Below are positions 26,913-27,080 of a DNA stretch of 29,781 nt, piece after piece. The position numbers and the translations under genes were made by a program. The notes beneath the pieces are model-generated. The model searched no databases, had not been told where the DNA came from, and worked only from the letters and a program-made list of their open reading frames with translations. The first letter of the stretch is position 1. Every line of letters begins with the position of its first letter. Source of the stretch: a virus; UHGV virus genome UHGV-0132373; one strand, given 5' to 3'.

Positions 26913-27080
26913 ATGCCCAAAATTCACCGTAGTCATGCTTAGGCAATGAGCTTGAAGGAGAGACCTACACAAAAAGTGTAGGTCGAAAAGCGAACAAAAT
27001 AACTTCCGAAAAAGTTGTTTTATCACAAAAAACTCACCGTAGCCATGCTGCGGCGATTCCTTGTATCTGGAGCAAATTAA

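Follow-up and report, generated by a model that had tools for sequence, protein, structure and literature searches.

The structured spacer that separates the antirepressor gene ant from the tailspike gene in this E. coli prophage is probably a recombination scar and not a purpose-built leader, with the hairpin that dominates it an inherited passenger. Its core can be identified by nucleotide homology as a piece of about 60 nt from a dead Ant1/KilAC-type antirepressor gene. The palindrome came with this remnant, copying a stem that lies within the coding sequence of that gene family, and was not created for the leader. The anatomy of the spacer, its presence and absence among relatives, homology to intact genes, covariation within those genes and the 3' junction of a related 78-nt unit were all observed directly.

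The window analyzed (UHGV-0132373, 29,781 nt) contains a P22-type immI region within an E. coli prophage, in the order ant, t_ant, spacer, tailspike gene, and the prophage of E. coli SFAD3 is 100% identical to it. The ant gene is 94% identical to ant of epsilon34 and 87% identical to that of P22. Together with the tailspike N-terminus it resembles epsilon34 (94–100%), and the receptor-binding part of the tailspike resembles that of E. coli phage phiv142-3. The t_ant sequence is identical across P22, epsilon34 and E. coli prophages, and a terminator is annotated at the homologous place in P22 record BK000583. The conserved layout of this spacer in P22-like phages is the ant terminator followed by a leader of about 45 nt and gene 9. 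As originally predicted, the direct repeats and palindrome lie between the ant terminator and the tailspike ATG (27081), in a spacer that is non-coding and strongly structured (RNA MFE -63.7 kcal/mol, z = -4.5). The features of the region are as follows.

25670-25703: Pant and Pmnt, the sole strong sigma-70 sites, with O_arc and O_mnt alongside.
25900-25967, minus strand: sar RNA, just upstream of ant (Rfam, 95.6 bits).
25968-26870, plus strand: ant, P22-type antirepressor coding sequence of 300 codons (open reading frame list).
26888-26914, plus strand: t_ant, a GC-rich 8-bp stem (26888-26907) with a 4-nt loop and a T7 run (terminator scan).
26905-26947, plus strand: direct repeat copy 1, the terminator T-tail and 5' part of the leader, its hairpin motif degraded (repeat search).
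26940-27049, plus strand: 110-nt optional unit, its placement ambiguous within the repeat.
26946-27006, plus strand: remnant of an Ant1/KilAC-type antirepressor gene, codons ~50-70, reading NELEGETYTKSVGRKANK, in late-operon orientation.
26962-26984, unstranded: palindrome with a 9-bp stem and AAAAA loop, derived from codons E-T-Y-T-K-S-V-G.
26996-27021, plus strand: AU-rich hairpin AAAAUAACUU-CCGAAA-AAGUUGUUUU (fold -6.3 kcal/mol, z = -3.9).
27014-27057, plus strand: direct repeat copy 2, start of the functional, universally conserved gene-9 leader (repeat search).
27037-27053, plus strand: 7-bp leader hairpin CCGTAGC-CAT-GCTGCGG, predicted in both MFE and centroid folds.
27069-27083, plus strand: Shine-Dalgarno GGAG and tailspike start codon (sequence; open reading frame 27081-29072).
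27081-29072, plus strand: tailspike coding sequence with a P22-type head-binding N-terminus (open reading frame).

The two direct repeats are real, being TTCACCGTAGTCATGCT at 26923-26939 and CTCACCGTAGCCATGCT at 27033-27049 (earlier coordinates were 1 nt low throughout), and a 16-mer with up to three mismatches gave two matches in the window against a mean of 0.19 in 100 whole-window shuffles. The predicted spacing of roughly 110 bp was borne out but the predicted length of 19 bp was not, since the repeat extends to approximately 43 nt with one indel. Its main block is 29 nt (26919-26947 versus 27029-27057, 83% identity) and an adjoining 18-nt block (26905-22 versus 27014-31) lies one base out of register. 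The total of approximately 43 nt, with a 110-nt period, takes in the T-tail of the ant terminator. At one locus (L174) copy 1 is a perfect 22-nt duplicate of the leader.

Comparison with related phages showed that the DNA between the repeats is optional. The match covers all 237 nt of the spacer query, at 95%, in P22 and its close kin, and in epsilon34, HK620, Emek, UPF_BP1, Kapi1 and SI8 it falls into two pieces with 110 nt missing. In the unit-less records of epsilon34, HK620, SI8, Emek and Kapi1, 131 nt correspond to 241 nt of the query, and the 110-nt segment is also missing from ST64T, L and most other P22-like phages. Unit-less phages read ...TTTTTTTATGCCCAAAATTCACCGTAGCCAYGCT|GCGGCGATTCC... 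with one repeat copy, and the window and P22 carry 110 nt at the position of the bar. A census of viral contigs took in approximately 135 loci with the terminator tail. The unit was absent from about 92 of them, in which the leader was conserved; a 78-nt unit occurred at 26 loci and the 110-nt unit at 7. Of the 1225 complete E. coli genomes that gave a match, 97 covered at least 80% of the query. The polymorphism ends within the direct repeats and leaves one hybrid copy, and the repeats are the edges of an insertion or deletion. As the flanks in the window are 97–100% identical to unit-less epsilon34, gain or loss of the unit was recent. Comparison with the corresponding P22 region, proposed with the original prediction, gave a divided answer: the spacer is 95% conserved in P22, but absence of the repeats from related phages, which was to count against the prediction, holds for most relatives though not for P22. 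Most P22-like relatives with the same tailspike type and leader lack the unit, indicating that tailspike expression does not depend on it, and the unit is most likely dispensable for this purpose and presumably neutral.

The origin of the unit core was identified from homology to intact antirepressor genes. Positions 26946-26989 are identical at 43 of 44 nt to a segment inside ORF19, annotated 'antirepressor', of Erwinia phage Midgardsormr38 (E = 1e-11), and the same 44-nt core matches a regulator gene of APSE-7, likewise at 43/44 nt. Its in-frame translation, NELEGETYTKSVGRK, which is preceded by a TAG stop, matches the family motif ELEGETYTKSVGRK. The homology extends in the 3' direction (AAAAGCGAACAA..AACTTC) to approximately 27006, corresponding to codons K-A-N-K-T-S of one set of family genes (the L141 type; z = 4.6). 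Extension into the 5' flank of the relic, or from the leader into the gene, was also attempted (AAATTCACCG/AAATTCATCG; CACCGTAGCC/CGCGTAGC); these matches were weak (z ≤ 2) and no claim is made for them. Open frames through the relics are at most 95 codons long compared with 240-350 codons in intact genes, and the remnant of about 20 codons has stop codons around it and so is not a gene. The family includes Ant1/Ant2 of P1 and many antirepressors of Stx phages, and is characterized by the Pfam ANT/KilAC C-terminal domain and by 'anti-repressor' matches to PHROG 1726 and 63; NCBIfam holds no model for the N-terminal domain of the Ant1-type family. The P22-type Ant encoded immediately upstream of the spacer belongs to a different, unrelated family. 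Intact members of the Ant1-type family are found 1.1-1.3 kb upstream of the same gene-9 leader in the 'ant moron' of JEP4-like E. coli phages, where the gene at the donor position is annotated 'KilA protein' in JEP4. The segment thus combines nucleotide homology in the same orientation, a broken frame with the family motif and a donor at the same locus. Both antirepressor types also occur side by side in a living tandem: the immI-like cluster of Midgardsormr38 (L002, 751-3087) contains two Arc-family genes and a P22-type antirepressor with a P22_AR_N domain, immediately followed downstream by an Ant1/KilAC-type one.

The 78-nt unit is present at the same place in E. coli prophages and in viral and metagenome contigs. 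Its core reads ...GATAG CAC TAC ACA AAA AGT GTA GTG CAA AAA GC(A/G) AAC AAA TAC TCACCGTAGCC, the 'class H' version of the gene segment, and matches class-H genes over approximately 40 nt. A third version, CAC TAC GAA ATT TTC GTA GTT, corresponds to the YEIFV class of Stx-phage genes. The 78-nt units carry a class-H or YEIFV-class palindrome plus adjoining codons, and the 110-nt type differs in having two more codons and 32 extra nt that form an AU-rich hairpin segment present in this type alone. The JEP4-type gene reads ...GTG CAA AAA GCG AAC AAA ACT TCG... and the JEP4-type leader is preceded by ...GGTATG(C/T)AACAAAT(A/G)CCAACCGTAGCC. The 3' junction of the 78-nt unit, GCGAACAAAT(A)C..ACCGTAGCC, is precisely that expected from a deletion between the two AACAAA repeats of JEP4-type loci and fits loss through microhomology. 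At the 5' junction a leader copy ending ...GCGGCGAT is joined to ...GAT GAG/GGC CTT of the gene, and this looks like an illegitimate join at a GAT microhomology. A locus with the terminator, the leader and a long truncated Ant1 gene was not present among the approximately 135 loci, nor did any intermediate among them account for either the 5' junction or the 32-nt AU-rich filler, so the 5' junction step is one that we infer.

Taken together, the unit most likely arose in two steps, for which the order of events, like the mechanism at the 5' junction, is the more tentative element. In the first, a copy of the leader would have been joined illegitimately to codon ~50 of an Ant1-type gene, the donor being the alternative 'ant moron' type of JEP4/CUS-3-like phages. 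In the second, a microhomology deletion would have taken out the rest of that gene. The product would be composed of a duplicated 5' leader piece, giving rise to the direct repeats, approximately 60 nt of the Ant1-type gene and a short AU-rich filler; recombination between the flanking repeats could remove the unit again to restore the epsilon34/HK620 form. Other relics were seen at this locus. JEP4 (L080, 701-780) and Kapi1 (L078, 701-1345) each carry a dead leader copy with the first P22-type gene 9 codons (ATGACAGATATTATAAATAGG) followed by foreign DNA, and in Kapi1 an HNH endonuclease gene lies between this relic and the real tailspike gene.

The predicted palindrome GACCTACAC-AAAAA-GTGTAGGTC was confirmed as a perfect 9+5+9 structure at 26962-26984 with no T run after it. 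Of Markov-shuffled versions of the 210-nt spacer, 0.9% contained a perfect stem of at least 9 bp with a loop of up to 8 nt, whilst the whole 29.8-kb window contains two such palindromes against 1.33 expected, which is chance level. The palindrome alone is thus statistically unremarkable and its reality rests on comparative data. The window has just one further perfect 9-bp palindrome, CCAAAGTGC-AAAAAA-GCACTTTGG at 9155-9178, which sits inside a 176-codon open reading frame (8977-9507, plus strand).

To characterize the stem within the living gene family, homologues were gathered using peptide patterns outside the hairpin (LLKMVNEA, GEPxVRNN), giving 50 distinct sequences, and codon entropy was computed among those with the consensus residue. 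Entropy was 1-2 bits at almost every conserved codon and approximately zero across GAG-ACC-TAC-ACA-AAA-AGT-GTA. On the 5' side of the hairpin the invariant or nearly invariant codons were GAG (48/50, E), ACC (24/24, T) and TAC (50/50, Y), and in the remainder ACA (40/42, T), AAA (42/42, K), AGT (42/42, S) and GTA (47/47, V). The codon that precedes TAC and the one that follows GTA were exact reverse complements across amino-acid classes: ACC/GGT (T..G), TTT/AAA (F..K), CAC/GTG (H..V) and GGT/ACC (G..T), with a TAC/GTG class (Y..V) complementary save for one wobble position. The following codon always begins with C (R, Q, P or H), pairing with the G of GAG, and the central nine bases vary symmetrically (ACAAAAAGT, GAAATTTTC, AAAACTTTT, AAAATTTTT, AAGATTTTT). 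Among 26 distinct sequences, 98.7% of the cells of the 9-bp stem were paired, with changes on both sides in six of the nine stem pairs (48 cells). None of 500 shuffles reached the observed values and a slid partner gave 24–47% paired. A 9-bp stem enclosing a 5-nt loop can be drawn for all of the classes; the stem of P1 ant has one mismatch. The palindrome is present at the same codons in a homologue from an Acinetobacter phage (40% amino-acid identity), and no palindrome was found at those codons in Pseudomonas and Vibrio homologues (35–38% identity). The mismatches were 3 of G.U type versus 3 of A.C type on the plus strand, a split that does not tell RNA from DNA or one strand from the other.

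Covariation at the protein level cannot yield exact reverse-complement codons, so the constraint acts on the nucleic acid. The genes thus have the properties of a conserved cis-acting stem within Ant1-type coding sequences, a class proposed here and not a curated one, and the reciprocal codon changes indicate that the stem constrains the amino acids at two covarying protein positions. Self-templated correction of quasi-palindromes offers a non-selective alternative (PMC8794818, PMC7202029, PMC8604942). Such template switching fits the perfect arms, compensatory changes made in a single step, the rarity of G.U intermediates and the survival of the palindrome in non-coding copies, but alone it leaves unexplained why the stem stays at 9 bp and the loop at 5 nt in at least 6 sequence classes and does not readily explain 1.3% mismatched cells beside saturated neighbouring synonymous sites. 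Because those sites are saturated, only 1.3% of stem cells are unpaired and stem length is constant, selection appears the more likely cause of the intragenic stem. The stem had no Rfam match and is unannotated in P22, P1 and the other records inspected. The remnant within the 110-nt unit is likewise unannotated in P22 records, and early papers (Berget et al. 1983; Sauer et al. 1982, 1983) may mention the dyad. A second stretch of near-zero synonymous variation (AAT TTA GCA ... GTT GTC ... AAA) was observed at codons 4-15 of a group of Ant1-type genes (L085-L164) and could reflect a translation-initiation constraint or an antisense target.

The unit would be transcribed only within read-through or late transcripts, in which the stable hairpin would form, and if the hairpin is an inherited passenger the persistence of the unit would reflect recent ancestry, possibly together with self-templated palindrome repair. 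It is possible, if rather doubtful, that the hairpin, or perhaps the whole unit, has instead been kept by selection in the spacer, either as an RNA stem-loop in late or read-through transcripts, which might act for example as a 5' stabilizer of gene 9 mRNA or a processing signal, or as a DNA or RNA site that might serve the same factor that constrains the stem in Ant1-type genes. Several observations are consistent with retention. Between the window and P22 the spacer including the unit is 92–100% identical and so more conserved than both flanking genes (60–77% for the 5' end of gene 9, 72–95% for the 3' end of ant), which is unusual for junk unless the patch was recently exchanged. One stem pair is C:G in the window and a compensated A:T in P22, a double change. 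The palindrome is paired in the non-coding versions seen, perfectly in class H and with one mismatch in YEIFV, the 9-bp stem being present in all relic classes, and in two relic variants the single changes are exclusively of U.G type on the plus strand. As RNA the palindrome alone is stable (-15 kcal/mol, z = -6), the homologous stem of the gene family is clearly constrained, and at one locus (L048) the unit is nearly unchanged between different flanks on both sides. Among class-H relics none of 18 stem positions varies compared with 33 of 115 outside (p = 0.006), the outside count being inflated by one indel-shifted sequence.

Against retention, the stem does not differ from its flanks when all relic types are considered (5/18 versus 41/115 variable positions), and each relic class may be a plain copy of its own gene class. 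Double changes can be produced without selection by quasi-palindrome self-correction (PMC8794818, PMC7202029), and the 3 against 3 division of G.U and A.C mismatches indicates no RNA strand. The unit is wholly missing from most relatives that have the terminator, leader and tailspike N-terminus in common with the window, and the palindrome has no promoter, terminator or operator signature and no further copies. A scar carrying an inherited hairpin remains the preferred reading.

A stronger form of the functional reading, in which the 9-bp stem and 5-nt loop is a structure-specific cis element, the sequence classes (ACC/GGT, TTT/AAA, CAC/GTG, GGT/ACC and others) would be its specificity types and P22-type phages would have kept a free-standing copy in the late-operon spacer for its continued activity, seems unlikely. 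That copy might then serve co-resident phages' cognate factor as a decoy or target, or tailspike mRNA as a stabilizer or processing signal. A conceptual precedent for a functional nucleotide element inside such genes is BstA/aba (Owen et al. 2021, PMC8585504), a short DNA element with cognate variants that occupies the 5' part of a prophage gene encoding a protein with a KilA-N-like N-terminal domain. The aba element differs in being 63-bp long, overlapping the start codon and having terminal CCCGCC direct repeats and no comparable palindrome; it has no sequence similarity to the present element and was rejected as its identity. Roi of phage HK022, which reportedly binds a site within its own gene, was dropped as a precedent, its N-terminal domain being Rha-like and its gene having no palindrome of at least 7 bp.

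That the spacer holds a gene-9-specific promoter with the palindrome as operator, as the original prediction had suggested, is very unlikely. The 9+5+9 geometry is operator-like and a Pant/O_mnt-like region lies directly upstream of the leader in ST64T/L-type phages, but on neither strand of 26871-27080 was there a -35/-10 match of at least 9/12 with hexamers spaced at 16-18 nt, and the unit is missing from most relatives. The suggestion of a regulator site likewise found no support, as the window contained no second palindrome or half-site copy and the stem is unrelated to its O_arc and O_mnt sequences. The stem sequence differs by class and covaries across classes, with no recognition sequence kept. 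Around 76 intact genes, 37 half-sites or further copies were seen against approximately 53 expected, which is chance level. The palindrome is followed by GAAAAGCG on the plus strand and TCTCCTTC on the minus strand and does not qualify as an intrinsic terminator; t_ant (26888-26914) is the only terminator in the spacer. Like t_ant and sar it is a stable hairpin of the immI region, but it has no U run on either strand and is not complementary to sar. The proposal of a processing-site leader fared no better: no Rfam family matched, a scan of 24500-29781 against Rfam 15 at E ≤ 1 returning sar only besides two chance-level matches, and the 110-nt segment is missing from most relatives. Many transcription start sites surround the P22-like tailspike gene in the BTP1 transcriptome; this phage lacks the spacer described here.

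It is still less probable that the unit is a small non-autonomous MITE-like element with a long target duplication. Its flanking direct repeats of 22-43 nt, presence/absence polymorphism and different flanks in L048 are as such an element would show, but every non-genic copy is at the single locus upstream of the tailspike leader, other matches to the core lie inside intact antirepressor genes and none was found at unrelated sites in viral, metagenome and E. coli scans. There are also no terminal inverted repeats, the 'duplication' takes in sequence from the terminator and the leader, and microhomology deletion accounts for one junction. Least credible is an 11-codon peptide, MSLKERPTQKV (ATG 26946 to TAG 26979), for although an open reading frame of equal length is open in the window, P22 and the class-H and YEIFV relics, no usable Shine-Dalgarno lies upstream, the residues are not conserved, and the ATG and TAG follow automatically from gene-derived GAT-G../GTA-G, so that the frame also exists in the +1 frame of intact genes.

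The feature in the window is thus a gene remnant and mosaic joint of a kind known from the P22 'ant moron', with an unusual passenger. High genetic flux has been described at this locus, with ten moron types in sixteen genomes (Villafane et al. 2008, PMC2629481) and truncated or degraded ant and arc genes in HK620 and Scho1 (PMC2629481). The unit shares this locus and behaviour and is one more relic, a worked example of 'ant moron' rebuilding. It differs from those relics (PMC2629481) in deriving from the P1 Ant1/KilAC-type family and not from P22 Ant, and in lying downstream of an intact ant gene and terminator, bracketed by a leader duplication. Its relation to P1 Ant1/Ant2 and the KilAC antirepressors (PF03374) is one of homology to the N-terminal domain at both nucleotide and codon level. 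For the window this result is deflationary, structure in the well-studied spacer between ant and gene 9 of P22 being a mosaic scar whose donor, and one of whose junctions, can be traced. The hidden stem belongs to a widespread antirepressor family of P1, Stx, P22-like, APSE, Erwinia and Acinetobacter phages. Were it functional, it would be an unrecognized layer of control on antirepressor expression, bearing on prophage induction and inter-phage conflict; were it maintained by template switching only, it would show with unusual clarity how that process can shape a protein in nature.

Homology common to all 'ant moron' types starts at CCGTAGCC (position 27037), and ST64T, L and JEP4-type phages have only the leader in common, from CCGTAGCC onwards. 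The leader hairpin at 27037-27053 is kept in epsilon34, HK620, ST64T and JEP4 and may be a real conserved leader element or a recombination joint. In the RNA fold a 6-bp helix, CAGAUA/UAUCUG (26871-26876 with 27063-27068), closes the entire spacer by joining the bases just past the ant stop to those just before the tailspike Shine-Dalgarno, and both strands of this helix are present in epsilon34 too. A 163-codon antisense open reading frame (26853-27344, minus strand) spans the spacer, the unit and the tailspike start and is almost certainly spurious. In ST64T the leader is preceded, at a distance of 14 nt, by a perfect O_mnt-like palindrome. The core of the direct repeats, TCACCGT(A/G)GCC (26924-26934 and 27034-27044), resembles the centre of the Mnt operator AGGTCCACCGTGGACCT (25706-25722) at 8-9 of 10 positions, a likeness that could be due to chance or represent a relic of a Pant region.
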